A stretch of DNA of 61,905 nt, from the NCBI GenBank assembly GCA_021850635.1, contig JAJZLM010000008.1, positions 1 to 61,905 on the forward strand, written 5' to 3'. Positions 14,184 to 51,067 of this stretch are shown in pieces. Every line of letters begins with the position of its first letter. Position 1 is the first letter of the stretch. Source of the DNA: Nanobdellota archaeon. GTDB taxonomy: Archaea > Nanobdellota > Nanobdellia > Parvarchaeales > Parvarchaeaceae. The translations under genes were made by a program, and so were the position numbers. The notes beneath the pieces are model-generated. The model was not told where the DNA came from. It saw only the letters and a list, made by a program, of their open reading frames with translations, and made no database searches.

Positions 14184-15863
14184 ATGACAGAATACAAACT
14201 TGACAATAAGTTCAACGATTCATTCAAGCAGGTAGCTCTAGGTGTATCTATAGGAGAAAACAATCAGCTTGCTGAGTTTGCGAAGATACTTAGAAGCGGT
14301 GCTCAGATGGTAGAACTGGATCTCGCTAGCCTTTACGGACACACGGGTCAGGGAACATCAGCTGAAAAGATCGGCAAAACTGAAAGAGAAGCAATAGGTA
14401 ACTTGGCAAAGACCACTAATTCCGATCTTAGTGTACATGCACCGTGGTCTATAAACTTTTCTGGAATAAACCCGAAGACCGGGGAAAAAGACACCAGTTA
14501 CAGCGAGCTTATGAGGAATGAGATAGAAGCTGCTATAAAATTCACAGATGAAATCAGCAGGCCTATGGGAAGACGCAACATGCCGATAATATTTCACGCC
14601 GCTTCGGATAACTTCGGCACACCAGATCCTAGATCACGCATAACTGTCTATGATAAAAAAGATGACAAAGTTATCTCTATAGGTCCATCAAAGATTATGA
14701 ACACAAGTTTGGAAGAATTCAAAAATGTTTATGGTGAAGACACCTTCAAAAGATTGCGTGGAGAGATAGCCCAGAAAAAAACCGATAGGAATGAGGCTTA
14801 TATCGAATTCACCCCTCAGGGCGCCCTTAACTTCCAACTAGACCAGTTGAGAATAGGGATGAGTCAGCAACTATCCACTATCGATATAAGCGAACGTAAC
14901 ATCGAGAGAAGATTGATAGAAGTAGCTAACGAATTTGTAGAGGCTAAAGCAAAAGGAGAAAACAGGGAATCCGAACTTTCAGCAAAAAAAGAAAGATTGC
15001 TCCAAGAGAAAAAGGACCTTTCGACTGAGAGGTACAGACTACAGAAAGAGATAGATAATCTGGGCTCCAGATTCGTATCATTCAGCGAAGAAGCTCCTAA
15101 ACTAGCAGCAGAAGGCATAAAAAATGCAGCACTTATGGCCGCTAAAACAAAGACTGCCCCTATGATACTTGTGGAGAATACGATGAGCCCGGACATGTCT
15201 TTAAGTAAACCGGAAGACGTGAAGAAAACTATAGACGCCGCCAGAGAACTATTTGTTGAAGCTGCGATGAAGGACGAAAAACTTAGACTGTCTAGATCCG
15301 ATGCAGAGAAATTGAGTAGGGACCTGATCGGCGTAAATCTGGACGTTGGACACTTGAACATATTCAAATCGTATACGAACCCAAAGACTGGGAAACCTTA
15401 CTCAGATAAAGATATAGTCAAAATGGCTGGGACCCTAGGAGACTATGTGAAAAGATATCACTTGAACGATAATATGGGTAACATAGACGCGCACCTGCCT
15501 CTCGGAGAAGGCACTACTCCGATAAAGGAGATATATGAGACGCTTAGGAACGCGGGTGTTGAAGCGCCGGCGATAATGGAGGTATTCGGAGGTGTCGGCG
15601 GTATAACTGCCGGGATGGGTCCATCAATGCAGTATATGGGCGCGCCTCTTTTTGACAATATGCCTTATGCTGGTCTCCCGGCTTATGCCGGCAGACCTTA
15701 TTCTTCGATCGTCGGAGACTACTCCTCATATCTCAACTTGGGATTAAGGAACGACCTTTTCCAGTACGGCGGTTTCAGCGGTATATCGCCGACATTTGGA
15801 GCAGGTTACATGCAGAACGAAAGAGGTGGTGAAGGTGGCTTCTCTGGAGCGCCGATTATTTAA
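14184..15863 (+). CDS. Xylose-isomerase-like TIM-barrel protein with inserted coiled coil and Gly/Tyr-rich tail
   Basis: VELDL..., LSVHAPW, NLDVGHLN, HLNDN..IDAHLPLGEGT match the AP-endonuclease-2/sugar isomerase barrel pattern. About 100 aa of charged coiled coil lie in the middle. The C-terminal 90 aa are G/Y/P-rich. Confidence 0.5.
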   Translation: MTEYKLDNKFNDSFKQVALGVSIGENNQLAEFAKILRSGAQMVELDLASLYGHTGQGTSAEKIGKTEREAIGNLAKTTNSDLSVHAPWSINFSGINPKTGEKDTSYSELMRNEIEAAIKFTDEISRPMGRRNMPIIFHAASDNFGTPDPRSRITVYDKKDDKVISIGPSKIMNTSLEEFKNVYGEDTFKRLRGEIAQKKTDRNEAYIEFTPQGALNFQLDQLRIGMSQQLSTIDISERNIERRLIEVANEFVEAKAKGENRESELSAKKERLLQEKKDLSTERYRLQKEIDNLGSRFVSFSEEAPKLAAEGIKNAALMAAKTKTAPMILVENTMSPDMSLSKPEDVKKTIDAARELFVEAAMKDEKLRLSRSDAEKLSRDLIGVNLDVGHLNIFKSYTNPKTGKPYSDKDIVKMAGTLGDYVKRYHLNDNMGNIDAHLPLGEGTTPIKEIYETLRNAGVEAPAIMEVFGGVGGITAGMGPSMQYMGAPLFDNMPYAGLPAYAGRPYSSIVGDYSSYLNLGLRNDLFQYGGFSGISPTFGAGYMQNERGGEGGFSGAPII

Positions 15864-15864
15864 T

Positions 15865-16647
15865 ATGGATGAAAAAGACAAGGGAGAATTAAAGCTAAGA
15901 GGATATGATTCGGCGTATAAGTTCGCCAAAGGGGCGTTCGAAAAATACCCTAAACTTATAAAGACCATTGCATTGTTCGGTTCGTACAGCAAAGGAAAGG
16001 AAACAGAGCAAAGCGATGTGGATATAATGCTGATAATGGATGACGTATTAAACAAGTTGGATGAAAACGTACTAGCTCCTTTCTACGCAGACATAGACAA
16101 GATAATAAAAGCTGAAAAATCCATGAAGTTGCATATAAACTTCGTTACCCTAACGGCTTTCTGGAAGGGTGTTCTAGCTGCTGACCCTGTTTCTGTAAAC
16201 GTGCTAAAATACGGAGTACCGCTCATAGATACTGGATATTTTGAGCCGCTGCAGGTACTATTAGAAAGAGGAGAAATAAAACCAACGGAAGAATCTATAT
16301 ACGCCGCTCTCTCCAGGAGTCAGCTGTACGCGGAGTCTTCAAAGATAAGGCTTGCTGGTTCAATAACCGACATGTACTGGTCGGTCGTCAATTCGGCCCA
16401 GGCTCTGATAATGAAGCATGGAGAGGTGCCTCCTTCTCCAGAAACGATAGGGGAAATGCTTGAATCTCTGCAGAGGATGCACGTGGTAACAGAGGAAGAT
16501 ATATCCACGTTTAACCAGATATTCACAATAGGCAAAAAAATACTGCACGGCGACAAAGTGGAGATAACCGGAACCGATGTAGACAAGATAATAAGCGCAG
16601 GAATGCGATTCAACGAGAAGATGGACCGTCTGGTCGAAAAAGGTTAA
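15865..16647 (+). CDS. Nucleotidyltransferase (Pol-beta superfamily) fused to a HEPN-like helical domain
   Basis: FGSYSKGKETEQSDVDIMLIMDD (GS...DxD NTase motif) with a helical C-terminal half. Paralog of 24492..25571. First ATG is 1 nt after the upstream stop. Confidence 0.72.
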   Translation: MDEKDKGELKLRGYDSAYKFAKGAFEKYPKLIKTIALFGSYSKGKETEQSDVDIMLIMDDVLNKLDENVLAPFYADIDKIIKAEKSMKLHINFVTLTAFWKGVLAADPVSVNVLKYGVPLIDTGYFEPLQVLLERGEIKPTEESIYAALSRSQLYAESSKIRLAGSITDMYWSVVNSAQALIMKHGEVPPSPETIGEMLESLQRMHVVTEEDISTFNQIFTIGKKILHGDKVEITGTDVDKIISAGMRFNEKMDRLVEKG

Positions 16648-16709: not shown

Positions 16710-17078
16710 ATGATAACCGGTTCCAAAGGTCAAGGATTACCGATAAATACTATAATACTTATAGCTATAGGTCTTCTGATATTGGTCCTTTTCATAACGT
16801 TCGTTCTAAACGGGTTCAAGGGGATAGGTGGTTCGACGAATCCTAATGCCCAAGCCCAACAGGCTTTCGCATCAAATTGCCAGACTGCATGTTCTGAATC
16901 TGCGGCATCTAATAACCCAGCGCAATGGTGCAGTTATCCTAACGATACTATAGGCGGCACGCTGTTCAGCTGTGGTAATGTACCAGGAGGAACGACAAGC
17001 TGCAGGCTCGATAATGGTACAACATTCTATTGGGGTAGCTCCGGGTCTCCATCCTGCTTCAGTGTACTGAATCCTTAA
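16710..17078 (+). CDS. Cys-rich secreted protein with class III (prepilin-like) signal peptide
   Basis: MITGSKGQGLPINTIILIAIGLLILVLF N-terminus; 6 Cys in the mature part; paralog of 54314..54664. Confidence 0.6.
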   Translation: MITGSKGQGLPINTIILIAIGLLILVLFITFVLNGFKGIGGSTNPNAQAQQAFASNCQTACSESAASNNPAQWCSYPNDTIGGTLFSCGNVPGGTTSCRLDNGTTFYWGSSGSPSCFSVLNP

Positions 17079-17170
17079 TTAATCTAATCTAGTAGATACT
17101 CCTAAGTCTATATTGCAATGATTTATCTTGCTTAATAAAAGTTAAATACCAAAGATGTAATACCATAAAA

Positions 17171-17755
17171 ATGACCACGCAGAGCAGCCTAGCCAGCACG
17201 ATATTAGGCTTCATTCTACTTATAGCGATAGCTGGGGGAATAATATACGCATTGAGCAGTCACATAATATTGATAAACACGTGCAGTGCAGATTCGACTT
17301 TGATATTCCAGAACAAAACAGGGTTGTGCCTATCGCATAATTCTTCAATAGCTATATCTGAAGGGACTATAGTGCCTCTTGCGTTCAAGTTTATCGGTAA
17401 TAACCCTCTATTATACATATGGAACCAGAAGATATCAGAGAAAGCGGATTCATACGTGTTCATGTCTATACCAGACACTTTCAGAGTCCACATGCAGTAT
17501 AATGCTACTTCGGATACGGAGTTCTTGGTGATGACAAACCAGCAGTACGTTGCATGGGTAAACTCCAACGGCGCTAATGCTGCTAGTGTGTTCTCCCTGT
17601 CTGGCAAACAGGTGTCTGGATGGTTCAATGACAGTGCAGGATGCGCCGGATACGTGGCCGTGATAATATCCACCTCACATTCTGCATTTTCGATATACCC
17701 TAATGAGACAGCGCTGTACGACCCAGCGCCTTCTCCGACGGGCGTTTGCGCATAA
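17171..17755 (+). CDS. N-terminally membrane-anchored or secreted protein
   Basis: 194 aa; the single N-terminal hydrophobic helix is ILGFILLIAIAGGIIYAL. Several N-x-S/T sequons. Confidence 0.5.
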   Translation: MTTQSSLASTILGFILLIAIAGGIIYALSSHIILINTCSADSTLIFQNKTGLCLSHNSSIAISEGTIVPLAFKFIGNNPLLYIWNQKISEKADSYVFMSIPDTFRVHMQYNATSDTEFLVMTNQQYVAWVNSNGANAASVFSLSGKQVSGWFNDSAGCAGYVAVIISTSHSAFSIYPNETALYDPAPSPTGVCA

Positions 17756-17801
17756 ATTCCCCTAAAATCGATTTTATATTTACTGGAGGCTATAAGGTGT
17801 A

Positions 17802-18419
17802 ATGGAGATGAATGCTTTCGAAGCCATAAATGAACTTAAAAAGTTCTTCGATGGCACTGGATCTATAATGAAATTGAGTACTATAATACCCGCTAAAAAG
17901 CTCGATATAAATCTAGATTATTTGGAAGGCGCTGTAAAACTAAAAGTGTCTCATCCTCTGCGCTTATATGCCGATGAGATATACAAGATACTTTTGAGAC
18001 TGTACCTGGTGTCTTCGACTGAACTTATAGTCGATTTCATATCTGGCGGAAAACCCAGAAGCGTGTCTAAGAAGTTCGGTGCCGACGAAAACATAAAGGA
18101 CACTATAAACGACCTGCTGGAGCTGCCGCATGAAAGGATAACCGACATAATAATAGAAACGGAATACTTCAAGATAGTAGAGACATCTGACCTAAATGAC
18201 ACTGTTTCAATGATAATAAAAAAAGGAGACCAAAAAGCCCTGTTCAGGAGCCTGCTAAATTATCTGTTTCCATTCGTCAACGTGTCCGTCGATAAATCTG
18301 CAAAGGAAGAGATAACATTTGAACAGAACGAGGACGAGCTAACAGCGGACGTTTCTATAACGGTAGACGGGACTTCTATAGGGATAAAATCAAAGCATGT
18401 AAAGCTCCTAAAGATATGA
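17802..18419 (+). CDS. Hypothetical protein, first gene of the KaiC-like/GTPase/Roadblock operon
   Basis: 205 aa with no recognisable motif. Its stop overlaps the next start (ATGA). Confidence 0.5.
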   Translation: MEMNAFEAINELKKFFDGTGSIMKLSTIIPAKKLDINLDYLEGAVKLKVSHPLRLYADEIYKILLRLYLVSSTELIVDFISGGKPRSVSKKFGADENIKDTINDLLELPHERITDIIIETEYFKIVETSDLNDTVSMIIKKGDQKALFRSLLNYLFPFVNVSVDKSAKEEITFEQNEDELTADVSITVDGTSIGIKSKHVKLLKI

Positions 18420-19075
18420 TAAAGACAGGAATACAATCCTTCGACGATGCAGTAGGAGGCATAGATTTGAGGAAGACCTATCTTATAAGCGGAAACAAGG
18501 AAAGCGGCAAGGAGGATTTTTCGTATAGGCTTGTGGCTTCTGCCCTCCGTGATAAGAATGCGGTCATATACGTCACGACTGGAAAGACTGTAAACGACGT
18601 AATCGCATCGTTCCAGTCGAGACAGTTGAATATATCTCAGTACATGGGGAATTCTTTCAAGATAATAGACGCTTACAGCAGAAGCATATCACCGCAATCT
18701 ACGGACAATTCATATACCAAGATGCTAAACGGTCCGTTGGACCTTACGGGCATATCAGTAGCGCTTTCTGCTATGAACGCTGAAATGTCAAAGGAAGGAG
18801 TCCCGGTCCTCAACGTAATAGACTCAATTTCGGTCCTGATGCTATACAACAACCCTACTACAATATATAGGTTCCTCCAATTTGTATGCGGCCGCTCTAA
18901 AATGGCGGGGATATCTAGCGTGTTCCTTATAGATGATGAGATGCACTCCCCTGAAGTAAACGAAACCATAAAATCCATAATGGATTCTGTGATAATGCTT
19001 AGATTAGAGAACGGGAAAAGGAGCTTTAAGGTATTAGGAAACTCTAAAGAGGTACTGGATTGGAAGGACATATGA
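18416..19075 (+). CDS. KaiC/RecA-superfamily ATPase-like protein (ArlH/FlaH-sized)
   Basis: 219 aa; GIQSFDDAVGGI...LISGNKESGKE (Walker A with E in place of S/T), Walker B-like VLNVIDSIS. Confidence 0.68.
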   Translation: MIKTGIQSFDDAVGGIDLRKTYLISGNKESGKEDFSYRLVASALRDKNAVIYVTTGKTVNDVIASFQSRQLNISQYMGNSFKIIDAYSRSISPQSTDNSYTKMLNGPLDLTGISVALSAMNAEMSKEGVPVLNVIDSISVLMLYNNPTTIYRFLQFVCGRSKMAGISSVFLIDDEMHSPEVNETIKSIMDSVIMLRLENGKRSFKVLGNSKEVLDWKDI

Positions 19076-19120
19076 GCACGACCAAAGAAGGGTTATATTT
19101 GTGGGTGGATAATCTTTTTT

Positions 19121-20329
19121 ATGGATAAAGTTAAAGACCCTGTATTTGGTATAGGTAAGCTAGATGATGACCTTACTGGGATCCCAGACAAGAAAAGTGT
19201 ACTTTTTTTCGCTTCTCCGGCTGTCGGAAACGAAGTTTTCGGTTATCAAGTTATACACAATAACCTATTACACGGCAATAAGGTACTGCTGTATGTAAAC
19301 AGGACTTCTCCGGAAGCGTACCTTGCAGACATGAAGGATTACGATTTTGAAGTTAACAGCAATCTGCATATAATAGACTCCTATAGCGGGATAACTGGAA
19401 TAAGTTCCAAAAGCGTTGACGACAGTACGATGATTTCAAACCCATATGACAAGGAAGAGATAAAGAAGGCGCTTTCAGAAGAATTGGACAAAGGGTATGA
19501 TCTTCTTGTCATAGATTCACTTTCCCTGATCGCTGATTTCTTCGATTTTGACTACGCGATGTCTGTTATAGATCTTGTAAAAGATAAGCTAGATAAGAAA
19601 GGCGGCTCTGTACTATCTCTGTTTACAGACTGGGATTATGGAGAGGAAAACTTGAACAAACTTATCTCCAAAGTAAACGCTAAGGTAGATATAAAGGGAA
19701 TAGAGAAACGAGTTATATTCGGACAATACTTCGCCGTTATAAAATGCGACTGGGTAAAGGATAAAAAGTTCTCATCGGTATTATTCAAGGCAGTGAAGCC
19801 AGGTGGAATAAAGATATACTTCCCCAAGATACTTGTTACTGGGCCTACAGATGCGGGCAAGACGTCTTTTATACACTCGGCATCAAAGGATGCAGTCAGC
19901 GTCGACAGACTTGGGGGCACTATAGCACTAGACCATGGAAATCTAGATTTTAAGGGTTACAAGGCAGATCTTTTCGGAACACCTGGTCAAGAGAGGTTCG
20001 ACCCGTTGCTCAAACTGTTGGGCGGTGAAGCCGTAGGGGTCATACTCGTGATAGATTCGACTAAACCAGACCAATTCCCAAGAGCGATAGAGATGCTCAG
20101 AAAAACAGAGACGTACGGCCTTCCGATAGTCGTAGTAGCAAACAAGGCAGACCTGCCTGGAGCTTTGTCACTCGATGATATAAGAGAACACCTGCACCTA
20201 GACAAGAACACCTCTTTGGTTAGGACCGTCGCAGAAAACTTAAATAATATAGATCCTAACAAACCGACAAGACTAAAGAAAGACGGAGTGGACTCTGCGC
20301 TCGATGCACTGTTCGCGGAGCTGACCTGA
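19121..20329 (+). CDS. Fusion of a degenerate KaiC-like domain with a small Ras-superfamily GTPase
   Basis: The N-terminal 230 aa are KaiC-like but lack the P-loop lysine (ASPAVGNE); DLLVIDSLS is retained. The C-terminal part has G1 GPTDAGKT, G3 DLFGTPGQERF, G4 NKAD. Confidence 0.75.
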   Translation: MDKVKDPVFGIGKLDDDLTGIPDKKSVLFFASPAVGNEVFGYQVIHNNLLHGNKVLLYVNRTSPEAYLADMKDYDFEVNSNLHIIDSYSGITGISSKSVDDSTMISNPYDKEEIKKALSEELDKGYDLLVIDSLSLIADFFDFDYAMSVIDLVKDKLDKKGGSVLSLFTDWDYGEENLNKLISKVNAKVDIKGIEKRVIFGQYFAVIKCDWVKDKKFSSVLFKAVKPGGIKIYFPKILVTGPTDAGKTSFIHSASKDAVSVDRLGGTIALDHGNLDFKGYKADLFGTPGQERFDPLLKLLGGEAVGVILVIDSTKPDQFPRAIEMLRKTETYGLPIVVVANKADLPGALSLDDIREHLHLDKNTSLVRTVAENLNNIDPNKPTRLKKDGVDSALDALFAELT

Positions 20330-20364
20330 AAAATGTTTAAATTGAAGGTAGATAATAAGTAGAT

Positions 20365-20739
20365 ATGGCCACTAAATCAGAATCGATGAGTATAATATTG
20401 GAGAAACTAGGGGAAGTAGGTGGAATAAAAGCTTCTGCGGTGATCTCTGCAGATGGCCTGCCTATAGTGCACAGGATACCTCAAGACATAGACCCGAATA
20501 ATTTCGCGGCTATGATGGCTTCGATGGTAGGTGCAGCCGAAGAGGCGCTTAAGTACCTTGGGTCCAAAAACATATTTGACACCATATTCGCGGAATCTAA
20601 GGATATAAGGGTCGTAGCTATAAAAGCTGGCGACAACGCTATACTCACGGTAATGACCGACCCGAATGCGAATTACGGACTTATAAAAATGTACGCTAAG
20701 AGATCTGCTGATGAGATAGCAAATATACTGAAGGACTGA
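20365..20739 (+). CDS. Roadblock/LC7 (MglB-like) domain protein
   Basis: 124 aa; GGIKASAVISADGLPIV ... AILTVMTD pattern typical of Roadblock/LC7. Confidence 0.7.
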   Translation: MATKSESMSIILEKLGEVGGIKASAVISADGLPIVHRIPQDIDPNNFAAMMASMVGAAEEALKYLGSKNIFDTIFAESKDIRVVAIKAGDNAILTVMTDPNANYGLIKMYAKRSADEIANILKD

Positions 20740-21182: not shown

Positions 21183-21812
21183 CTATTTAGTATTACTATT
21201 CGAATCTACTCTTTTCACTATCTCGCGCCCGACTTCAACTTTCTGGTAAGGAGTCAGTTTGAATAGTTTTGAGTACATGCCCTGTAGTTCTTTTGGATTG
21301 TCTTGACCAAAGAACGGTGGTTCAAGTATCATAGGTTGGATACCATTTGAACCGTTTATACTGTAAGATCCTTTTGAAGCGAATACTCCTATGGTTAGGT
21401 CAGGCAAATCAGTAAGATAACCTAGTTGAGTTATTATCCTGCCTACATGATCCCTGCTACTAACTCCAAAGACTGAATCAGCTCCAACTCCCTTGGCATA
21501 TGAGCTTATCTTATTTACATTGTCCTGTGTATTTTTGGATTCTTTGTCCAAGACTACCTCATCTATAATTTTTTCTAGGTTAGTATATCTTTTCTTAAGT
21601 AAATCATGCATCGCATCGGCTTCTACTTTACCTGTTTTATTAGATACTGTTCCTCCAGAAATGTACATATCTACGTCTATATTATGACTCTTGAGGAATC
21701 TGGCAATGCCAACCGCGCCATCGAATCTATCAGAAACCACCTGCTCCCAAGGATTATTCCCAGGGACTATATTCTCACTGTAACCATATACACTTACGAT
21801 AGCTTTTGCCAT
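21183..21812 (-). CDS. DUF218 (YdcF/ElyC-like) domain protein
   Basis: ISGGTV...VEADAM...ESKNTQDNV...GVSSRDHVGRI. Paralog of 38115..38711. GGAGGT lies upstream of the ATG. Confidence 0.68.
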   Translation of the reverse strand: MAKAIVSVYGYSENIVPGNNPWEQVVSDRFDGAVGIARFLKSHNIDVDMYISGGTVSNKTGKVEADAMHDLLKKRYTNLEKIIDEVVLDKESKNTQDNVNKISSYAKGVGADSVFGVSSRDHVGRIITQLGYLTDLPDLTIGVFASKGSYSINGSNGIQPMILEPPFFGQDNPKELQGMYSKLFKLTPYQKVEVGREIVKRVDSNSNTK

Positions 21813-21896: not shown

Positions 21897-22073
21897 TTAT
21901 ACTCTGCCCAATCCAGATATTATAGAAGATTTGAACCCGGAGAAGAATCCGGATATAGCGTTTGTTATTACGCTTGGCCCGGCTAGGAGTATATAGATTA
22001 TTATAAGCACTATCGAGAGCGCAAGCGCTATGATGTAGTATATGGTGGTTTCTGTTATGCCTTTTGTATGCAT
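21897..22073 (-). CDS. Mini membrane/pilin-like protein 4 of 4 (58 aa)
   Basis: Hand translation: MHTKGITETTIYYIIALALSIVLIIIYILLAGPSVITNAISGFFSGFKSSIISGLGRV. Starts 4 nt after the preceding stop. Below the ORF-track size cutoff. Confidence 0.6.
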   Translation of the reverse strand: MHTKGITETTIYYIIALALSIVLIIIYILLAGPSVITNAISGFFSGFKSSIISGLGRV

Positions 22074-22077
22074 ATAA

Positions 22078-22224
22078 TCACCCGAAGGGATTCGGAAGGG
22101 AAGGTATAAGCTTTCCGAGGGAGCTAGGCGAATATATGACGAGATAAAATATAACTATCACTATTGCGATTATCAAGATTATTATAAGCATAAGTATATA
22201 GTCAGTGACGCCTTTATTATGCAT
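22078..22224 (-). CDS. Mini membrane/pilin-like protein 3 of 4 (48 aa)
   Basis: Hand translation: MHNKGVTDYILMLIIILIIAIVIVIFYLVIYSPSSLGKLIPSLPNPFG. The ATG overlaps the preceding stop (TATGCATAA) and GGAGGAGGGAG lies upstream. Confidence 0.6.
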   Translation of the reverse strand: MHNKGVTDYILMLIIILIIAIVIVIFYLVIYSPSSLGKLIPSLPNPFG

Positions 22225-22393
22225 ATCTCCCTCCTCCACCGCTGTTGCCAGCGGCAGATATGAAAGATTCTATGAAGTTAGACAACTTATAAGGCGTTAG
22301 AAACTGTAGGAAGATGAGTATTACGATTACCACTATTATTATGAGCACTATATACAAAAGCACGGTCCCTTGTATTGCTCCTTTCTCATCCAT
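22217..22393 (-). CDS. Mini membrane/pilin-like protein 2 of 4 (58 aa)
   Basis: Hand translation: MDEKGAIQGTVLLYIVLIIIVVIVILIFLQFLTPYKLSNFIESFISAAGNSGGGGRYA. The ATG overlaps the preceding stop (AATGGATGA). Confidence 0.6.
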   Translation of the reverse strand: MDEKGAIQGTVLLYIVLIIIVVIVILIFLQFLTPYKLSNFIESFISAAGNSGGGGRYA

Positions 22394-22562
22394 TCCCGAA
22401 AAGCCAGCTGAACGATACTGCTTTTAATATATCGTTTCCTATGCTGGTGCCACCTCCTAATAAATAGATGGCCGCTATCACGATTCCTATCGCTAATACG
22501 ACCAAGGCTATGACTATAGCCACTATTTCTGTAACCGGCATCTCTCCTTTTTTATTGAACAT
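22386..22562 (-). CDS. Mini membrane/pilin-like protein 1 of 4 (58 aa)
   Basis: Hand translation: MFNKKGEMPVTEIVAIVIALVVLAIGIVIAAIYLLGGGTSIGNDILKAVSFSWLFGNG. Starts 9 nt after the stop of the 577-aa ORF. Confidence 0.6.
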   Translation of the reverse strand: MFNKKGEMPVTEIVAIVIALVVLAIGIVIAAIYLLGGGTSIGNDILKAVSFSWLFGNG

Positions 22563-22571
22563 ATTATCGTA

Positions 22572-24305
22572 TCAGAACAGAGGGTTATCGAACTTCGATA
22601 AGGGAGTCATTAGATTCTTCCTTCTTTTGAACTCGTTGTATATCAAATATGCATCGTTCATCGAAATGAACATCCCTGCTTCTATCGCTCTCTTATTCTT
22701 TATAGCGCCGAACTTCCTGTGGCTAAGCTCTATTTCATAAAGCTCGGGTTTGAAACTGTGTTTATCATCTTCATAGTGCGGAGATGCTGCAGACATCGCT
22801 TTATTTATGCCTAGGATGTCATCCTTGAACGACCTATAGATATCTATGAATGCGTAGCTGTTGTCATTTTTCTTTGGTTTTGTCGCTTTGTCCGCTTCCT
22901 CTATATACTTATCTAGCTCTTTCTGTATCGAGCTGAGTGAAGAAACTGAAACCTTGTCTAACTCTGAAAAGACGGTTTTGCTTATCCTTGCTTCCTGTGC
23001 CTTAGTGAATAAATACCATTCATCTACGGAAAAACAATAAGGGGTAACGTTTATGTCTAGCGTACCGTAGTACTGCGGTTTATCCTGTATGGCACCCTTT
23101 AGGAATAGCTGTTTTTCAACAAAGGTCAGAGATACTTCTATAGCTGATATCACCTTAGGCCCATATTTAGTCAGGTAATCGTGGATGAATGACCTGCTGT
23201 TCTCGCGTGGGCCTTGTCTCATGGACGGTGATGCGGGGAACTTTTCATTGACTGAAACTGGGAGCTGCACCCCTTTGTTGCCGAATATCTTTGCGTTTTC
23301 AACTGAGTACTCTCCTAGGTATATAGGCTTGTTGCCAATTACTTCTAGAGATAATTTAGCAGTCTCCATTATATCCGGTTGCTTAGTATTTGACATGTAT
23401 CCTTTCGCGTCTTTAGTCCCTGTCAGATTTATTCTCTTAAGTATAGTCAGAGCTTCAGCGGCCCATTCTGAATACATTTTATACGAAGACACCTGGCTTT
23501 TCAGGTACTGCAGAAGCATAGCTTTTCTCTGTCTTAAGTCCGAACCGCTTATTTTGACCCACTCCTCATATTCTATGTATCTGTTCTTGAGTATGTCCTT
23601 GTACTCGTCGTTCCTCTGCATGTTTTCTATGTCTCTTAAACTTTTCACCTTGTAAAATGAAGCGACTAAGTCTATGAACCCAGCTCCTCCCTGTCCTTGG
23701 GAGTACCCAGCTGAAAGAGCAGCCAGACTTGCGCCTCTTTTTCTTGCATCGACCTGGTCCACGAATATTCTCTTGAGAGCCAGTCCTGCAGCTTCCTTTT
23801 TCTCTTTGTCGCCAGATTCCATCAGATTATAAAATTGAAGGTTCCTGTCTAATTCTCTCAGTTCGTACGTTATGGATATTATTGATTTAAGGACGGTGTT
23901 GACGCTGCCCAGAAGAGTCATCGCTCTGTCTTCGAAGGCTTTCCTTTTTTCGAAAACCATCACCATCAAGTTCGACAAAGCCGAAGGGTCTATGGACTCC
24001 GCAGTCTTTAGCATATTATAACCCAATCCCCCGAACTCTTGTCTCACCATGTTATATTCTGTCTGGAACTGGTATCCTTTTTCTATATCAAACGAAATAA
24101 AGATACCTTTTTCTGGACCAATCAAACCTGGGGCTGGCGTTTCCTTTTTTTTGGCGAACTTCAGGTTTTCTAGCTTACCGCGATAATGGCCTTCTATGCT
24201 GGAAGCACGCATCTTCAGCTCCTTTATCCATGAGTCCACCACATCTGTTGGTGTAGAAGGTTTCATCAGCATTTCCACATATCTTGATAAAGTCGCTAGA
24301 TTCAT
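22572..24305 (-). CDS. Orphan 577-aa soluble protein, function unknown
   Basis: Long uninterrupted ORF with normal composition. No TM, P-loop or other motif recognised. Helical and charged central region. Confidence 0.7.
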   Translation of the reverse strand: MNLATLSRYVEMLMKPSTPTDVVDSWIKELKMRASSIEGHYRGKLENLKFAKKKETPAPGLIGPEKGIFISFDIEKGYQFQTEYNMVRQEFGGLGYNMLKTAESIDPSALSNLMVMVFEKRKAFEDRAMTLLGSVNTVLKSIISITYELRELDRNLQFYNLMESGDKEKKEAAGLALKRIFVDQVDARKRGASLAALSAGYSQGQGGAGFIDLVASFYKVKSLRDIENMQRNDEYKDILKNRYIEYEEWVKISGSDLRQRKAMLLQYLKSQVSSYKMYSEWAAEALTILKRINLTGTKDAKGYMSNTKQPDIMETAKLSLEVIGNKPIYLGEYSVENAKIFGNKGVQLPVSVNEKFPASPSMRQGPRENSRSFIHDYLTKYGPKVISAIEVSLTFVEKQLFLKGAIQDKPQYYGTLDINVTPYCFSVDEWYLFTKAQEARISKTVFSELDKVSVSSLSSIQKELDKYIEEADKATKPKKNDNSYAFIDIYRSFKDDILGINKAMSAASPHYEDDKHSFKPELYEIELSHRKFGAIKNKRAIEAGMFISMNDAYLIYNEFKRRKNLMTPLSKFDNPLF

Positions 24306-24491
24306 ATTAGTAATTTGACGGTGGTAATTTATATACTATTACCATAGATGACCAAACTCTATTTTCCATTCGTGATTTTTAACGTAGCCGGCAACGCTTG
24401 ACAGCCGATAGAGCAGCGTCCCACGACAATACAAAAGACTTATAAAGGAGAGTGGAGTGTAATATAAATTTATCACTTGAGGAATTATATT

Positions 24492-25571
24492 ATGCATCAG
24501 ACCGAAAACGTGAACCCTGTTGAAGGAGCGCTCAACAAGCTTTTTTCCACGATAGACGCTCTTTCTGCAAAGATAGACGAACTTAATGAACGAGTAGACT
24601 ATATGGGCTCTTTCGTAGGTATAGACGTTGGAGAAGAGGGCAAGGAAGCGCATATAGAACCACCCGGTCAACTAGCTGGTCTTTCTTTCGATATATTAAG
24701 CAAGATACTACAGCCAAAAGATGCCAACGATATTAGAGCGTATTTCCTTAGGGTATTAAGCCTATTTAGAAAATACATAAAATCTATAATAATATTCGGA
24801 AGCTCCAAAACAAAAACCGGCATAAACAGCACATCTGACATAGACGTGGCTTTCATAGTAGACGACACGGATATACAGAGATTTACGCTGGAACAGCTCA
24901 AAGAGAGACTATTCACTAAGATGGCCGAGATAGCGAAGGACTTCTCCGAGAAGATACACGCTCAGGCTTATCCTCTTTCTGAATTTTGGGCTTCTATAAT
25001 AAAACCAAATCCTGTGATACTAACCTTATTGAGGGATGGCATAGCGGTTTACGATACGGGTTATTTTGTGCCTATACAGATGTTGTACAAGACTGGGAAC
25101 ATCATCCCTACCAAAGAATCAATAGACGCTAACATAGAGAATGCAGAAGGACTTATAATGCTTGCAGACAACGTTCTTAGCACAAAACTGAGCATGGACC
25201 TTTATAACTCCGTTGTAGCAGCTGGGCAGGCTCTTCTTATGGAATACGGTTACTTACCACCCGTGCCTAAAGAAGTTTCTAAGGATCTTATGGTGATAGC
25301 CGTAGAAAAGGAAAAAGCGCTTACTAAGGAAGATGTGGATAAAGTAAGCGATGTAGTCACATGGTTCAAAAAGATAGACCACGGTGAAATCAAAGAAGTT
25401 AGCGGCGAAGAATACAGTAAGAAGCGCAAGATAACTAAAGAGGTCGTTGATAAGATACTAAAGATAATAAGCGACTTGCGAGAAAAAAAAGGGATTCCAA
25501 AGCCAGCGATAGACAAGGAGATTGCAAAGGAGATGGAGAAGAAAGACAGCCAATATAGCGTCCCGCAGTGA
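24492..25571 (+). CDS. Nucleotidyltransferase fused to a HEPN-like domain, with coiled-coil N-terminal and K/E-rich C-terminal extensions
   Basis: IIFGSSKTKTGINSTSDIDVAFIVDD NTase motif. VYDTGYFVPIQMLYKTGNIIPTKESI aligns with LIDTGYFEPLQVLLERGEIKPTEESI of 15865..16647. First ATG at 24492. Confidence 0.72.
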   Translation: MHQTENVNPVEGALNKLFSTIDALSAKIDELNERVDYMGSFVGIDVGEEGKEAHIEPPGQLAGLSFDILSKILQPKDANDIRAYFLRVLSLFRKYIKSIIIFGSSKTKTGINSTSDIDVAFIVDDTDIQRFTLEQLKERLFTKMAEIAKDFSEKIHAQAYPLSEFWASIIKPNPVILTLLRDGIAVYDTGYFVPIQMLYKTGNIIPTKESIDANIENAEGLIMLADNVLSTKLSMDLYNSVVAAGQALLMEYGYLPPVPKEVSKDLMVIAVEKEKALTKEDVDKVSDVVTWFKKIDHGEIKEVSGEEYSKKRKITKEVVDKILKIISDLREKKGIPKPAIDKEIAKEMEKKDSQYSVPQ

Positions 25572-27947: not shown

Positions 27948-28649
27948 ATGCTAGGTAAGCCTTTGGGCAAAAATTCGAAGGGTCAGTTCACAACGGAATA
28001 CATGATAGTCATAGCCATAGCTCTTGCGACAATAGCGTTCTTTTTGATCTACGTTTTCATATACTACTCGAATTATTACGGCTCTTCCACTTCATCGAAG
28101 GTATCCAGCGTAGCGACAACTCTTACAAACGAGGCGAACTACGTGACTAACGAAGGGATTGGATCGAAGACCTCCTTTTCTTTGAGTGTGCCGGATCTGA
28201 CTTTATTAGGGTCGTTTTTCTGCGGGAATTATATAAAGGCGTCGTACGGAGCATATTCCTCGATACAGTACTCCAAATCTAAGCTAGAAGGAGTGCTTCC
28301 AACAACAGGAGGCACATACATAGTATATGCCAAATATAGTGGCAATGATATAGTACAGATAGGATTACAGGCAGACATATCTTACATAAATTACTCTTAT
28401 TCTATCAATGGCAATCTGTTGAATTATTATCTGGAATTTTACGGTAAAAACGGGCTCCCTACCGGTTCTACCGCATACAATATAAGCGTGTTCTCATATA
28501 CAGGTCAATACATAAACAGCACAGTTAGCTCTTCTACGAACGGAGAGGCGGCTTCCTCCATATACCTCGGACAAGTGCCTTCTACATTATTAATATACAT
28601 ATTCGCTTTAGGTACTAATGTGGTGGCACCATCGTGCTTCCAAACTTGA
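27948..28649 (+). CDS. Type IV pilin-like protein with class III signal peptide
   Basis: MLGKPLGKNSKGQFTTEYMIVIAIALATIAFFLIYVF. KG|Q-x-T-x-E followed by a hydrophobic helix resembles EppA/DUF361-type archaeal prepilins. Ser/Tyr/Asn-rich mature part. Confidence 0.65.
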   Translation: MLGKPLGKNSKGQFTTEYMIVIAIALATIAFFLIYVFIYYSNYYGSSTSSKVSSVATTLTNEANYVTNEGIGSKTSFSLSVPDLTLLGSFFCGNYIKASYGAYSSIQYSKSKLEGVLPTTGGTYIVYAKYSGNDIVQIGLQADISYINYSYSINGNLLNYYLEFYGKNGLPTGSTAYNISVFSYTGQYINSTVSSSTNGEAASSIYLGQVPSTLLIYIFALGTNVVAPSCFQT

Positions 28650-33410: not shown

Positions 33411-33419
33411 ATTGACAGT

Positions 33420-33683
33420 GACAGGCCACGGCTTCGAAATGACTATCCGCACAGAGGATAGCAACATTTTCTCCCCACAGTTTACTTACAAGCACGCACC
33501 CATTCAATTACGGTTGCTCCCTTCCGGGCCTGGCCGGTTTTTCGAACGAAAGCATCCCGCAAGGCTGTGGCTCTCAGATAGCTTTGCTAGCATATACAGA
33601 GTCATCACCCCTTGACCGCGCTTTCGCCACGCCTAAAGTCCGTTTGCGTTGTAGGGAGGGACTAACTCCCCAGCTAGCCTGTC
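33420..33683 (-). ncRNA. Signal recognition particle (7S) RNA
   Basis: Minus strand contains CCGGCCAGGCCCGGAAGGGAGCAACCG (the conserved helix-8 motif). 5' GACAGGCUA pairs with 3' UGGCCUGUC to close the molecule. Ends are approximate. Confidence 0.8.
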
Positions 33684-33703
33684 AAGTATAATTTGATTAC
33701 GGC

Positions 33704-37092: not shown

Positions 37093-38118
37093 TCACTTTG
37101 ACAAGAATTCCTCTCCGAGTTCTTTGAGGATATCTTGCCTGTCTTCGAAGTACTTTCTTACTCTTTCTAGTTTCTTTATCAAATATGACGCTACCGTGCT
37201 CTTCAGGTCCTCCGGGTGTATCTTCTTTTCAGTGTAAAGTCTCTCCAATTCCTCCGAAGAAGTTATTTCCAGGTCTCCCCCAAACTTCTCAGCACGCTCT
37301 ATTTTGAACTTTTCATCGGAGGGTAGTATCAGATACTTTGCTACATCAACGACGAAATTGTCCTTTGTTACCCCTGGTGGGCAGTAGGCTCTGGCTATCT
37401 TTCTTCTTATAATATCCTCAGAGTCGTACACTTTTATGTGCGTTTCAGGAAGCGAAGAGCTCATCTTTGAGCCGGGGCCTAACAACGATGTTATAAACGG
37501 CACCATTATTTCTACTCTTTTGCGATATCCTAATATTGGGAGGTGCTCTCTTGCAAACACGAATATATGTCTCTGATCCATAGAACCTAGCTGTATGTCG
37601 ACGTCTAAATACTGCTCGTCCAAAGACTGCATTATAGGATATATAAGTTCGCTTACTTTTGGATTCTTCATCCTTGTCACCTCGGACGCTGCGCGCAAAG
37701 CTCTGTCGATCGTCGTCACAGTGGATATTTTTAGCATGTCGTTGATATAATCTTTGTCCAACTCGAAATCTGATCCCCTCACGAACTCTGGTTTTTCTTT
37801 CCAATCAAAGGACAGCTCAAAACATTTTTTAGTATAATCTACTCTCTTGTCAAGATCCTCCCATTTTGACTTTAAGTCGTCTAGAGCTGCATGTATGTCG
37901 GCGAGCAATATCTTAGCATGTATGCCTGCCTTTTGGAAATCCAACAATTTGCCGAATGCTACCAAATGCCCTAAATGCATAGCACCTGTCGGTGCTCTTC
38001 CACAATACGCGGATATGTCTTTCTTCTCGGTGAGAAGAGAATTAAGTTCGCTGTCGGTTATTATTTCAGACGTGTTCCTCTTAATCAGTTTCAGTCTTTC
38101 ATCTAAATCCATATTCAT
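37093..38118 (-). CDS. tyrS: Tyrosyl-tRNA synthetase
   Basis: GRAPTGAMHLGHL (HIGH), LLADIHAALDD, KMSSS; 341 aa. Confidence 0.82.
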   Translation of the reverse strand: MNMDLDERLKLIKRNTSEIITDSELNSLLTEKKDISAYCGRAPTGAMHLGHLVAFGKLLDFQKAGIHAKILLADIHAALDDLKSKWEDLDKRVDYTKKCFELSFDWKEKPEFVRGSDFELDKDYINDMLKISTVTTIDRALRAASEVTRMKNPKVSELIYPIMQSLDEQYLDVDIQLGSMDQRHIFVFAREHLPILGYRKRVEIMVPFITSLLGPGSKMSSSLPETHIKVYDSEDIIRRKIARAYCPPGVTKDNFVVDVAKYLILPSDEKFKIERAEKFGGDLEITSSEELERLYTEKKIHPEDLKSTVASYLIKKLERVRKYFEDRQDILKELGEEFLSK

Positions 38119-38711
38119 TCTAATCCAGAGCGCACAGCGTCTCTTATCTTCTTTTTCACATCTTCTTTTTTATCGTCATGGACATATAAAATGTCCTTTA
38201 GCGAATCATAAGCCCAAAACGGAGGCTCTATTACTATTGGCGCATTCTTATCTCCGGATTCACTGTAAGATTCTTCAGACGGCGCGACCATCACTAGGTG
38301 CTCACTAACGTTCTTATCATACGCCCAATCCTTAGCTATTCTAGAGATATGATCCTTGCTGCTGACAGCTATTATAGCTGCATTCTTTTTCTTAGCCCAC
38401 TTCATTATCTCATCCACGTTCTCCTGCGTGTTCTTCGACTCTCTTTCCAGTATGACGTCTGTGACCATATCAAAAAGAGCTGGGAATTTTTTCCTCGCTA
38501 ATTCGTATATCCTATCGGCTTCAACGACTCCATTTGTGACTACGCCTCCGGATAATATCAAGTAACTAATCACTTTAGTCGACTTAAAAAATCTGGCTAG
38601 TTTTATAGCCGTGCGTAACCTGTCTTCTACCACAGACTCCCATGTCCTGTGCATTGGTTTCGGCTCCCTCGTATATCCGTGTACGCATATCAGAACGCTC
38701 TGCATTTCCAT
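38115..38711 (-). CDS. DUF218 (YdcF/ElyC-like) domain protein
   Basis: LSGGVV..VEADRI...ESKNTQENV...AVSSKDHISRI. 4-nt overlap with tyrS. Confidence 0.68.
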   Translation of the reverse strand: MEMQSVLICVHGYTREPKPMHRTWESVVEDRLRTAIKLARFFKSTKVISYLILSGGVVTNGVVEADRIYELARKKFPALFDMVTDVILERESKNTQENVDEIMKWAKKKNAAIIAVSSKDHISRIAKDWAYDKNVSEHLVMVAPSEESYSESGDKNAPIVIEPPFWAYDSLKDILYVHDDKKEDVKKKIRDAVRSGLE

Positions 38712-38831: not shown

Positions 38832-38944
38832 TCCGCTCGGCCGGATTCGAACCTGCACTCTTCCCGTCGCTGCCCTTCATCGCACTAATACATAGCACTT
38901 TGTTATATCTACAGCGGGACGCGTTACCGTTGCGCCACGAGCGG
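38832..38944 (-). tRNA. tRNA-Tyr(GUA) with a 41-nt intron at the canonical 37/38 position
   Basis: Hand fold: acceptor CCGCUCG/CGAGCGG plus discriminator A, D arm GCGC-AACGGUA-ACGC, G26. Anticodon stem UCCCG/CGGGA, loop CUGUAG|intron|A, T arm GCAGG-UUCGAAU-CCGGC. BHB is helix CUGU/GCAG flanked by 3-nt bulges AGA and CGA. Confidence 0.8.
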
Positions 38945-40565: not shown

Positions 40566-41372
40566 TCACCCTATATCAAATTGGCATACTAGTGCGTTTC
40601 CACCCGAGTAACTGCACTCTTGAAGGGATATTACTCCTGGGGAACCGTGCAGAAAAGCCATCGGATTATCATTACAGTTACTCCCGCAATTAGTATCTTT
40701 TACGCTGAGAAATATTGGAATGCCGTTCTTCTCAGGTATCTGTGCACAGTCGAGCGCTGAGATATAACCAGATGGTTCGTTTCTACCGAAGGAAGTAGTA
40801 GCGTTTAGAAAAGACGTACACGATGAACCTAATGATAATGATGGAGGTAAGTTTACGAAGAAACTTAGAGTACCTTGTGAGCCATTTATACCGGATGTAT
40901 TCGAGCTGGAACCAGAGTTCAGGTATGTAGCGGCACCGAACCAATCTGGAAAGGATGCGCTATTTGAAGAGGAAGGCAAGTCACTCCATCCAGAGTCGAC
41001 AAGATTGCTGGTTGTGTACGAACCTATACATATGAAATAGCTTCCGGACAGCGTAGTCGGGTCGCTCGGCGCGGTGAGCTCGCCGGTTCTAGACAACTGA
41101 TCTAAAAGAGAAATACACGATGAACTGCCATAAAATTGGGCCATAAACTGATCCCCACTAAGAGACGGGGCGAGGGAGCCAACCACAACAGATTCTCCGC
41201 TAGTCAGCGCAACGGCGGTCTGGCTAACGTAAGCTTGCGGTGATTGGACTATGGATTTCACGCTGGCAGAACCGTAAACGAATATTACCAGAACTACGAA
41301 CAGTACGGGTATAATTATTATTATGGAGATTATAAACCCCAGAAAAGCGTTTATGCCCTTCTTATTGCTCAT
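40566..41372 (-). CDS. Pilin-like secreted protein with class III signal peptide
   Basis: From the internal Met: MSNKKGINAFLGFIISIIIIIPVLFVVLVIF. The ATG at 41372 lies 4 nt after the rpl24e stop, whereas the longer track ORF would overlap rpl24e. Confidence 0.6.
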   Translation of the reverse strand: MSNKKGINAFLGFIISIIIIIPVLFVVLVIFVYGSASVKSIVQSPQAYVSQTAVALTSGESVVVGSLAPSLSGDQFMAQFYGSSSCISLLDQLSRTGELTAPSDPTTLSGSYFICIGSYTTSNLVDSGWSDLPSSSNSASFPDWFGAATYLNSGSSSNTSGINGSQGTLSFFVNLPPSLSLGSSCTSFLNATTSFGRNEPSGYISALDCAQIPEKNGIPIFLSVKDTNCGSNCNDNPMAFLHGSPGVISLQECSYSGGNALVCQFDIG

Positions 41373-41376
41373 TAGA

Positions 41377-41556
41377 TTACTTAGTCTCGCCACTATTTAT
41401 TGATTTTGTAATCCACTTGATCTTTCTTGTATCCTTTTTCATGATGGAATACTTCATGCACCGTCTGCTGCAGAAATTTTGAGTGGTACCGTCTAATTTA
41501 ACGTACATTATTCCGCTTCCTCTTTTTATATCTCTGCCACAAAAATTACATTTCAT
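41377..41556 (-). CDS. rpl24e: Ribosomal protein eL24 (L24e)
   Basis: Hand translation: MKCNFCGRDIKRGSGIMYVKLDGTTQNFCSRRCMKYSIMKKDTRKIKWITKSINSGETK. Below the ORF-track cutoff. Confidence 0.85.
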   Translation of the reverse strand: MKCNFCGRDIKRGSGIMYVKLDGTTQNFCSRRCMKYSIMKKDTRKIKWITKSINSGETK

Positions 41557-50323: not shown

Positions 50324-50439
50324 GTGACAGCATCCACTTACTTTTTCCCTTTTACGGAATACTCATAAGACGCGCCGGTGATTATCTTCCGTGTTCGAAA
50401 TGGGAACGGGATTTGCCGCCGGCCTATTAACGCTATCAC
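50324..50439 (-). rRNA. 5S ribosomal RNA (unlinked to 16S/23S)
   Basis: Minus strand has CCCAUUUCGAACACGGAAGAUAA (conserved loop B/helix III region). Helix I is GUGAUAGC/GCUGUCAC. About 116 nt. Confidence 0.8.
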
Positions 50440-50473: not shown

Positions 50474-51067
50474 CTACCTGGCCAGCAGATTGACATTTAT
50501 ATACTCTGAAACGTACGTGCCATTCGAAGCAGATATTATCGTACCCCTACAGTCATGATTAGCGTAGCATGAATATGGTACATTGTAATACCCGAATCGC
50601 AGAGCCAGATACGCGTAAAACATGCCTTTAGTATTTACCTTTATGATACTGGGTGAATACGGCCACACGACCGTTGCAGTAGAATTTGGGAGCAGGATAT
50701 ACTCCAAAAGAGCGGAACACGATGCTTCGTTGCTGACGTTTATTATATACGCAGTATCTACTGGATACACATTCCCTGTCAACGGTGATACGCATCCTGC
50801 AACATATCCCACGGCGGAGTCCGCATTGTTTTTAAGGCTGATAGCTAGTACAAGCTGACCGTTATACGAGTTAAACGAGGGGGTGATATTTGTAACTGAG
50901 ACAACAGAACTAGACTGAGAAAAGTTTATCACCGACACTGAAGAGACCCCTCCAAGAGGTCCAGCCGTATAGATGTAATATACAAGGCTTACTAAAAGGA
51001 ACATTACCAGAACTACTGCGATGCTACCGACCACTTTATCTTGGGCTATATTATTGCCAGCGCGCAT
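50474..51067 (-). CDS. Secreted or membrane-anchored protein
   Basis: 197 aa; N-terminal helix GSIAVVLVMFLLVSLVYYIY; N-x-S/T sequons and several Cys. Confidence 0.5.
   Translation of the reverse strand: MRAGNNIAQDKVVGSIAVVLVMFLLVSLVYYIYTAGPLGGVSSVSVINFSQSSSVVSVTNITPSFNSYNGQLVLAISLKNNADSAVGYVAGCVSPLTGNVYPVDTAYIINVSNEASCSALLEYILLPNSTATVVWPYSPSIIKVNTKGMFYAYLALRFGYYNVPYSCYANHDCRGTIISASNGTYVSEYINVNLLAR

Follow-up and report, generated by a model that had tools for sequence, protein, structure and literature searches.

Putative class III signal (pilin-like) mini-proteins attached to an uncharacterised Nanoarchaeota protein family

We analysed a 61,905-nt stretch of DNA from a Nanobdellota archaeon of the Parvarchaeales (contig JAJZLM010000008.1), hereafter the window, in which a minus-strand gene encoding a 577-aa protein (22572..24305; the large protein, "BIG") is directly followed by four tandem mini-genes encoding peptides of 58, 58, 48 and 58 aa. 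We found that all four mini-genes are real genes under purifying selection. Judging from sequence, the locus would represent class III signal or pilin-like proteins attached to an uncharacterised Nanoarchaeota protein family. We tentatively favour, with a confidence just short of even, the interpretation that the products of the four genes are ultra-short membrane proteins of the prepilin type, which are processed by FlaK, form a fixed four-member pilin-like set and have their genes co-transcribed with that of the large cytoplasmic protein.

An earlier inspection of the letters alone (hereafter the sequence-only reading) had proposed these five open reading frames (ORFs). All of them are present at the positions and sizes it gave, its N-terminal sequences are exact, and so are its spacings: the junctions from the large gene through mini-genes 1 to 4 measure +9, -8, -8 and +4 nt, both overlaps being of 8 nt. 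Mini-protein 1 (22386..22562, on the minus strand like the other three; 58 aa) carries the leader MFNKKG, then EMPVTE and a 23-residue hydrophobic helix; its tail closes with the conserved FSFSWLF. Mini-protein 2 (22217..22393; 58 aa) begins with the leader MDEKG and, after its hydrophobic helix, has a tail in which FTPYK is conserved. In mini-protein 3 (22078..22224; 48 aa from its ATG), the leader MHNKG and the hydrophobic helix precede the tail SPSSLGKLIPSLPNPFG. In mini-protein 4 (21897..22073; 58 aa), the leader MHTKG is followed by ITETT, a hydrophobic helix and the tail GPS...ISGFFSGF. The mechanical ORF list moves the start of mini-gene 3 to a GTG at 22239, which gives 53 aa; the ATG start is the one common to the orthologues and to the NCBI annotation. 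In GenBank, mini-proteins 1-4 are deposited as hypothetical proteins M1433_00525 to M1433_00510, and the large protein is identical to M1433_00530 of a metagenome-assembled genome (MAG) named "Candidatus Parvarchaeota archaeon".

We gathered 12 Parvarchaeales loci, whose large proteins are 44-100% identical to that of the window. The mini-genes lie directly 3' of the large gene in 10 of the 12, which makes nine distinct loci once a duplicate is set aside; eight of these carry all four mini-genes, and in the ninth the contig ends inside the fourth. Their order is constant, every junction falls between -8 and +9 nt, and the proteins at each position form an orthologous family of their own, recognisable by its tail (...SFSWLF in family 1, ...FTPYK... 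in family 2, ...SPSxLxKLIPxxPN in family 3 and ...GPSxxxxDISxFFSG in family 4). Hidden Markov models (HMMs) of the families score 78-116 bits on their own members, the same sequences having been used to build them. Pairwise Nei-Gojobori comparisons across the four families gave proportions of non-synonymous differences (pN) of 0.10-0.37 against proportions of synonymous differences (pS) of 0.60-0.91. Synonymous sites are near saturation, and the ratio of non-synonymous to synonymous rates (dN/dS) was 0.04-0.35 in the pairs with unsaturated pS. Mini-protein 1 (dN/dS 0.04-0.15) keeps G6, M8, P9, T11, E12 and SFSWL invariant in the nine loci; mini-protein 2 showed a pN of 0.16-0.34 against a pS of 0.65-0.91, and mini-protein 4 a dN/dS of 0.09-0.35. 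The conservation of the mini-ORFs as reading frames in relatives, which the sequence-only reading had named as a test, is thus borne out in nine loci.

One might suspect chance open frames in an A+T-rich intergenic stretch, since the frames are short and mini-gene 3 was left uncalled by the gene caller in three metagenome assemblies. On the other hand, frames, order, spacing and family-specific tails are all kept in the nine loci, and chance ORFs are excluded by the gap between pS (0.6-0.9) and pN (0.1-0.37) in the conserved frames; we give this explanation practically no credence. For the same reason, namely that selection acts on the minus-strand frames, we judge the short plus-strand ORFs overlapping the five-gene unit to be spurious. 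The sequence-only reading had also considered holin- or toxin-like peptides. Holin-, toxin- or bacteriocin-like products of a mobile or defence element would indeed be short, very hydrophobic and in tandem, and we noted weak Pfam noise matches to small viral membrane proteins. However, neither PHROGs nor PADLOC yielded a match, the genes occupy a conserved core-genome setting between L35Ae and a nucleotidyltransferase (NTase) gene on one side and GINS or DUF218 on the other, and their G+C is that of the rest of the window, which is archaeal and has ~41% G+C throughout. Together with the strong purifying selection across a deep divergence, these results leave that suggestion unsupported and, in our opinion, highly improbable.

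The assignment to the prepilin class comes from the N-termini. In 32 of 32 leader-bearing orthologues, position -2 of the predicted site is Lys (31) or Arg (1) and position -1 is Gly (30) or Ala (2), both Ala residues belonging to mini-protein 2 orthologues. The leaders are 5-8 aa long and otherwise variable, in contrast to the strong conservation beyond the site. A hydrophobic stretch of ~23 residues follows, with an uncharged run of at least 16 aa beginning 0-6 residues past the site, and then a tail of 17-27 residues, which opens with helix breakers and includes a short amphipathic segment. An acidic residue after the site is also kept: all mini-protein 4 sequences, the leaderless forms included, have Glu at +3, and all mini-protein 1 sequences have Thr-Glu at +5/+6. 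Archaeal prepilins are processed with G, A or S at -1 and a charged residue at -2 (PMC4371748), and FlaFind-type rules for these two residues, as for a site near the N-terminus ahead of a ~20-residue hydrophobic domain, describe the mini-proteins too.

The M-x-x-(K)-K-G start attributed to every mini-ORF by the sequence-only reading is found on all four of the window; it does not extend to the mini-protein 4 orthologues of one clade (L001, L004 and L090), which lack the MxxKKG leader. These begin M-E-[AS]-V-W, aligned to T-E-[AT]-T, one residue past the predicted cut. Such a loss is what one would expect if the leader were removed anyway and were not needed by the mature protein. Scanning the 62-kb window with a simple rule, we found the motif in nine ORFs only, namely those of the mini-genes and another five of 116-275 aa (with leader sequences such as MITGSKGQGLPINTIILIAIG and MKGQELPTSTIILIIL) that we judge to be real. 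The organism evidently has a repertoire of class III-leader proteins.

Among characterised systems, the short pilins of Methanococcales and Thermococcales (EpdA-E; MMP1685/EpdE; PF04021) resemble the mini-proteins in having a basic K-G leader, a hydrophobic stretch directly after the site and an acidic residue within a few positions of it. Small class III signal members also occur in tandem in Methanocaldococcus. Like the mini-proteins, Epd-type pilins are very small, methanococcal major pilins having ~70 aa (PMC4858521), and exist as several paralogues per genome. Moreover, mini-protein 1 of one clade reads KGQM, to be compared with the KGQ[VLI] processing sites of the Methanococcus Epd pilins (PMC4371748). 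On the other hand, the mini-proteins differ from Epd pilins in that they do not match PF04021, meet helix breakers at once after the hydrophobic stretch and lack the Q+1/E+5 signature of EppA substrates. With 43-53 aa, the predicted mature forms would be shorter than any characterised pilin, and their genes are coupled to that of a large soluble protein, whereas Epd-type genes stand alone or in a pilus locus.

A fixed group of four distinct prepilin-type proteins, made from neighbouring genes and presumably in fixed proportion, also recalls minor-pilin sets. In archaeal pilus loci, it is common to find several minor pilins recognised by FlaFind and, in some cases, a coiled-coil protein that is intracellular (PMC4858521). 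However, known minor pilins have globular domains of at least 100 aa that form a tip complex; the mini-proteins have none, and no ATPase or platform gene adjoins them. A further parallel is the bacterial PilA-N of Geobacter, a truncated, helix-only pilin of 61 aa with a G|FTLIE signature, whose partner PilA-C is a secreted globular protein. Both PilA-N and the mini-proteins are pilin-like and reduced to little beyond the N-terminal helix. The partners differ, PilA-C being secreted and the neighbouring large protein having neither signal peptide nor transmembrane segment.

Parts of a pilus machinery have been documented in this lineage. The preflagellin peptidase gene flaK is present in 22 of 22 Parvarchaeum-type genomes, ARMAN-4 and ARMAN-5 included, as is the pilus ATPase arCOG01818; TadC is present in most, and a recognised pilin arCOG in just one of the 22 (PMC10134863 Table S6). 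Similarly, Makarova et al. described some nanoarchaeal pilus ATPases without identifiable cognate pilins, and major pilins often stand alone (PMC4858521). The lack of any prepilin peptidase, which the sequence-only reading had put forward as a ground for abandoning the pilin idea, therefore does not apply to Parvarchaeum-type genomes.

According to the interpretation that we favour, four bitopic proteins would insert with the N-terminus in the cytoplasm, a FlaK/PibD-type peptidase would cut the leader to leave peptides of 43-53 residues, and the mature peptides would make up a fixed four-member pilin-like set. This set might provide a type IV pilus-like machinery, encoded elsewhere and lacking recognisable pilins, with the minimal core of a pilus or pseudopilus or with a priming complex. 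The large protein would be made in step with the peptides and may serve as their cytoplasmic partner or scaffold. Cleavage, assembly and contact with the large protein are steps that we infer. A bolder proposal is that these are the smallest type IV pilin-like subunits known and the "missing" pilins of Parvarchaeum-type archaea, building a filament or membrane stalk free of globular domains with the 577-aa protein as a new kind of cytoplasmic assembly or anchoring factor, and that the family of this protein, together with an acidic protein, a TIM-barrel protein and an NTase described below, defines a so far unrecognised envelope or cell-contact apparatus common to Nanoarchaeota. We regard this proposal, taken as a whole, as quite unlikely.

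Several observations weigh against reading the mini-proteins as processed, pilin-like subunits. No mini-protein matched the Pfam models PF04021 (Class_IIIsignal) and PF07790 (archaeal pilin N-terminal), even at E<=1, and NCBIfam, PHROGs and PADLOC returned nothing relevant for them. In favour of that reading, hhalign aligned the leaders of mini-proteins 4 and 1 in register at KKG with the M-x-N-K-K-G-L-S of a 150-aa family with a pilin-type N-terminus from Pacearchaeota and Woesearchaeota (probabilities of 83% and 81%, respectively); the E-values, however, are those of single pairwise comparisons over short, compositionally biased segments. More generally, hydrophobic, low-complexity sequences limit what alignment statistics can prove. 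The class III signal proposed by the sequence-only reading can thus be retained as regards the strict [KR][GA] site and the in-register leader alignment, and it goes unrecognised by the existing class III and pilin models. Furthermore, type IV pilins are structurally defined by a long alpha-helix and a C-terminal globular, mostly beta domain, which the mini-proteins lack. Only 17-27 residues follow their hydrophobic helix, and they begin with GGG, TP, SPS or GPS. With these breakers directly after the helix, the mini-proteins are unlikely to form an alpha-1 helix as long and continuous as that of known pilins. As for minimal pilins of 43-53 aa, then, the strict leader and the presence of flaK in the order speak for that suggestion, and the missing globular domain and unmatched pilin models against it. 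By motif, transmembrane-segment count and Pfam, we did not observe a prepilin peptidase, a pilus ATPase or TadC in the operon or in the 62-kb window, so that the peptidase and PilB/PilC-like genes for which a search had been suggested are not found there. In addition, the large-protein family exists without mini-genes in hundreds of genomes, including Candidatus Rehaiarchaeum fermentans and two closer loci; the mini-genes do not adjoin the large gene in L091 and L095 (one clade) or in Rehaiarchaeum. Finally, general synteny in these genomes is strong, TFIIB, Trm1, L35Ae and GINS keeping their places as well.

In the main alternative explanation, the mini-proteins would be unprocessed single-pass subunits whose N-terminus is held in the cytoplasm by Lys, forming a transmembrane bundle that tethers or regulates the large protein, with a likeness to class III leaders that is coincidental or vestigial. 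The failure of pilin models to match is in line with it, and helix breakers after a 23-residue stretch, followed by short amphipathic tails, suit bitopic membrane proteins better than pilins. Likewise, four distinct families in fixed order suggest a stoichiometric complex, and nine loci, spanning 44-100% protein identity, preserve the close translational coupling with the large gene. However, a plain positive-inside anchor leaves G/A at -1 and K/R at -2 in 32 of 32 proteins unexplained, as it does the loss of the whole basic leader of mini-protein 4 in one clade. Moreover, the large protein works without the peptides in most lineages, and its sequence lacks any marked membrane-docking element. 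We consider such an anchor possible but doubtful.

The large protein itself belongs to a much wider family than a first search indicated. A word-indexed search returned 39 full-length homologues from Parvarchaeota, 38 of them close, the named ones all being Parvarchaeota, and a second homologue search with a diverse alignment gave the same 39 proteins and nothing further. By contrast, an exhaustive search with a profile seeded by the window protein reached 440 clusters at 50% identity with E<=1e-3, 290 of them with E<=1e-10. Most members have 450-560 aa. A scan of one genome per GTDB species found a matching locus in at least 577 species genomes; the best 80 of these loci come nearly all from MAGs of Pacearchaeota, Woesearchaeota or Nanoarchaeia, and the family is also present in Rehaiarchaeum, a deeper member of the Parvarchaeales. 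The sequence-only reading had called the protein an orphan, a description that this distribution overturns. In the conserved core (~79-330), W249 is invariant and the motif LK-x-I-[FW]-x-D-x-VD-x-[RK]-x-G-x-x-S occurs. Four clear homologues lie in MAGs labelled as bacterial (Dojkabacteria, Paceibacterota, Patescibacteria or "bacterium"; L017, L020, L067 and L079), and at least L067 and L079 have neighbouring gene families common to the archaeal loci. The bacterial labels are likely due to mis-binning or mislabelling.

We found no Walker A motif, transmembrane segment or signal peptide in the large protein, in agreement with the soluble protein without a P-loop described from the letters. Since it lacks the latter two elements, it is predicted to be cytoplasmic. 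No match above noise was found in Pfam, NCBIfam, PHROGs or PADLOC, and in a Pfam scan of 56 diverse family members no family was matched, even weakly, by more than three. Sequence searches of the PDB, with the single protein and with a profile, were equally negative. The statement that no motif could be placed in this protein therefore holds after profile and structure searches. An AlphaFold2 model based on a 137-sequence alignment reached a pLDDT of 88 and a pTM of 0.80. In this model, a small alpha/beta unit at the N-terminus is followed by three very long helices (112-162, 167-200 and 233-291). Five long strands (315-426), flanked by helices, then form a sheet, and a disordered linker rich in Lys and Glu precedes a C-terminal helical hairpin. 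Foldseek found no fold match for it in the PDB (best E 0.099, TM-score <=0.28), nor anything meaningful in the PDB and BFVD for an earlier model with a pLDDT of 71. Matches to STAT, BabA, TolC and ClyA were rejected as coiled-coil look-alikes with low TM-scores, and BAR-PH, MACPF, gasdermin and ClyA-like readings of the modelled secondary structure were dropped for want of Foldseek support. If the model is correct, the fold, which combines long helical bundles with a sheet of long beta-strands, would be previously undescribed. Literature searches turned up no account of this family or of DPANN mini-pilins. Castelle et al. (2021) grouped 51 lineage-specific DPANN families of Pacearchaeota and Woesearchaeota, mostly of unannotated function, as Module 98; the large-protein family is widespread in the same lineages and likewise unannotated, none of the resources that we searched giving a function or structure for it.

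Compared with this distribution, that of the mini-genes is narrow. We found them only in one acidophilic Parvarchaeales subclade, and the HMMs of the mini-families detected no copies in the 80 loci from Pacearchaeota, Woesearchaeota and Nanoarchaeia or in loci L091, L095 and L097. A metagenome scan gave four loci only. The link between homologues of the 577-aa protein and arrays of mini-ORFs, suggested by the sequence-only reading, is thus real in nine Parvarchaeales loci and does not extend to most homologues, which have no such neighbours. Since homologues without mini-genes exist across lineages, the large-protein family is older than the mini-genes and can do without them; their addition took place in the acidophilic subclade. 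The family clearly has a function independent of the peptides. In a related Parvarchaeota genome, a small hydrophobic gene of 53 aa (L002 13381..13542, minus strand) gave a weak match to the HMM of mini-protein 3 (E 8e-4), and further mini-genes of this kind may be scattered through Parvarchaeota genomes.

Concerning expression, a TATA-box-like element, TATATAAA (24328..24335, minus strand), lies 23-30 nt 5' of the large-gene ATG and is a putative archaeal promoter. A TATA-like A/T-rich element was found ~24-33 nt upstream of this ATG in 10 of 10 orthologous loci examined. We infer a single transcript for all five genes, probably leaderless or near-leaderless, starting from this promoter. Within it, GGAGG stands 7 nt upstream of the start of mini-gene 3, and GGTGA precedes mini-gene 4. 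The Gly-rich C-terminal codons of mini-gene 2 (22225..22243, minus strand; GGT GGA GGA GGG AGA TAT G) double as the Shine-Dalgarno-like GGAGG of mini-gene 3, an overlap that may account for the conserved "GG-x-Y" tail of mini-protein 2. Rfam detected no RNA family within the operon region, and a scan of the region for sigma-70 promoters and intrinsic terminators is uninformative for an archaeon.

In the Parvarchaeales, the gene string reads TFIIB, Trm1, L35Ae and NTase, then, divergently, the large gene, mini-genes 1-4, GINS and a helicase; in the clade of the window, it ends in DUF218 and a 91-aa gene in place of GINS and the helicase. The DUF218-like gene adjoining the mini-genes (21183..21812, minus strand) has a paralogue in the window (38115..38711, minus strand). 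It is absent from the closest relative, L096, and we therefore place it outside the operon. The NTase of ~360 aa is divergent from the large gene in all Parvarchaeales loci. In the window, it lies at 24492..25571 on the plus strand, its ATG at 24492 being taken from orthologue starts, and matches PF01909 and PF18765. A paralogous or orthologous NTase stands in the large-gene string of Pacearchaeota and Woesearchaeota, being present in 38 of the 80 loci from Nanoarchaeota other than Parvarchaeales. We treat this neighbour as context rather than as a proven component of the operon.

The fact that unrelated housekeeping genes keep the same neighbourhood as the mini-genes fits another explanation, that the mini-proteins are small accessory components of a different membrane complex, such as a transporter, a complex of the respiratory or ATP-synthase-like type, or one for secretion or glycosylation, and that their genes ride on the transcript of the large gene. 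Such piggy-backing is seen in the window, where a leader-bearing gene overlaps the end of a SufU-like gene by 4 nt. Given this overlap and the strong general synteny, co-transcription need not mean shared function. It seems common in this compact genome for a gene to ride on the transcript of another, and the large protein may be linked to the mini-proteins by nothing more than a shared operon. Nevertheless, no mini-protein family matches any known complex, and the leader motif points to the prepilin class. An accessory role of this sort appears unlikely to us.

The leader-bearing gene just mentioned (54314..54664, plus strand) encodes 116 aa, with the class III-type leader MKGQELPTSTIILIIL..., and the SufU/IscU-like gene that it overlaps follows a cysteine desulfurase-like gene, both identified by eye. 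Another leader-bearing protein is encoded in an operon at 16710..20739 (plus strand), 3' of a TIM-barrel and NTase gene pair. This protein has 122 aa and the class III-type leader MITGSKGQGLPINT...; the operon also encodes a 194-aa protein whose N-terminal part contains a transmembrane segment and a 205-aa protein, as well as a KaiC/FlaH-like ATPase (219 aa), a Roadblock/LC7 protein and a 402-aa protein with a weakly KaiC-like N-terminal part and a small Arf/Ras-like GTPase domain at the end. This operon may be a pilus- or polarity-related module. Three more proteins with [KR][GA] leaders, of 197-275 aa, are encoded at 27948..28649 (plus strand), 40566..41393 (minus strand) and 50474..51067 (minus strand), with sequences such as KGQFTTEYMIVIAI and KKGINAFLGF; no Pfam pilin model matched them.

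Outside the Parvarchaeales, the large gene has other neighbours. In the 80 loci from Pacearchaeota, Woesearchaeota and Nanoarchaeia, the opposite strand, reading towards the large gene, carries genes for a 150-aa protein with a pilin-type N-terminus (26 of 80), a GluRS-like protein and a ~120-aa coiled-coil protein (46 of 80). On the strand of the large gene and after it come a ~190-aa acidic, low-complexity protein, a ~600-aa TIM-barrel protein (40 of 80) and an NTase of ~290 aa. The TIM-barrel protein is xylose-isomerase-like (PF01261), with a ~200-aa helical insert and a Gly/Tyr/Gln-rich tail. Its homologue in the window (29% identity, E 5e-31) is encoded at 14184..15863, 8 kb from the large gene, and is directly followed by a second NTase gene (the pair spanning 14184..16647, plus strand). 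PDB sequence searches gave no match for the TIM-barrel and NTase proteins. The string of large gene, acidic protein, TIM-barrel protein and NTase looks like a conserved module. As for the divergent ~120-aa neighbour (for example L087 4433..4792, minus strand), it has an amphipathic N-terminus, MGLFGLGKKG, a Ser-rich linker and a C-terminal coiled coil, and no family match; it might be a membrane-tethering protein.

Rfam also located three RNA genes elsewhere in the window, all on the minus strand: an archaeal signal recognition particle RNA (33419..33684), a 5S rRNA (50325..50437) and a 113-nt tRNA (38832..38944), the last missed by ARAGORN, probably owing to an intron.

Parvarchaeota, relatives of ARMAN-4 and ARMAN-5, are, like other Nanoarchaeota, host-dependent ultrasmall archaea that are thought to touch their hosts via pilus-like structures. 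According to published tables, Parvarchaeum-type genomes have the peptidase, the pilus ATPase and usually the platform protein, yet almost no identifiable pilins. The four conserved peptides, together with the five longer leader-bearing proteins of the window, provide concrete candidate substrates for the prepilin peptidase, and, should the peptides indeed be pilins, the lower size limit of this class would have to be revised downwards. Likewise, the large protein, which is widespread and has a confidently predicted fold unlike anything solved, represents a good target for structural and cell-biological work on the "dark matter" of DPANN archaea.

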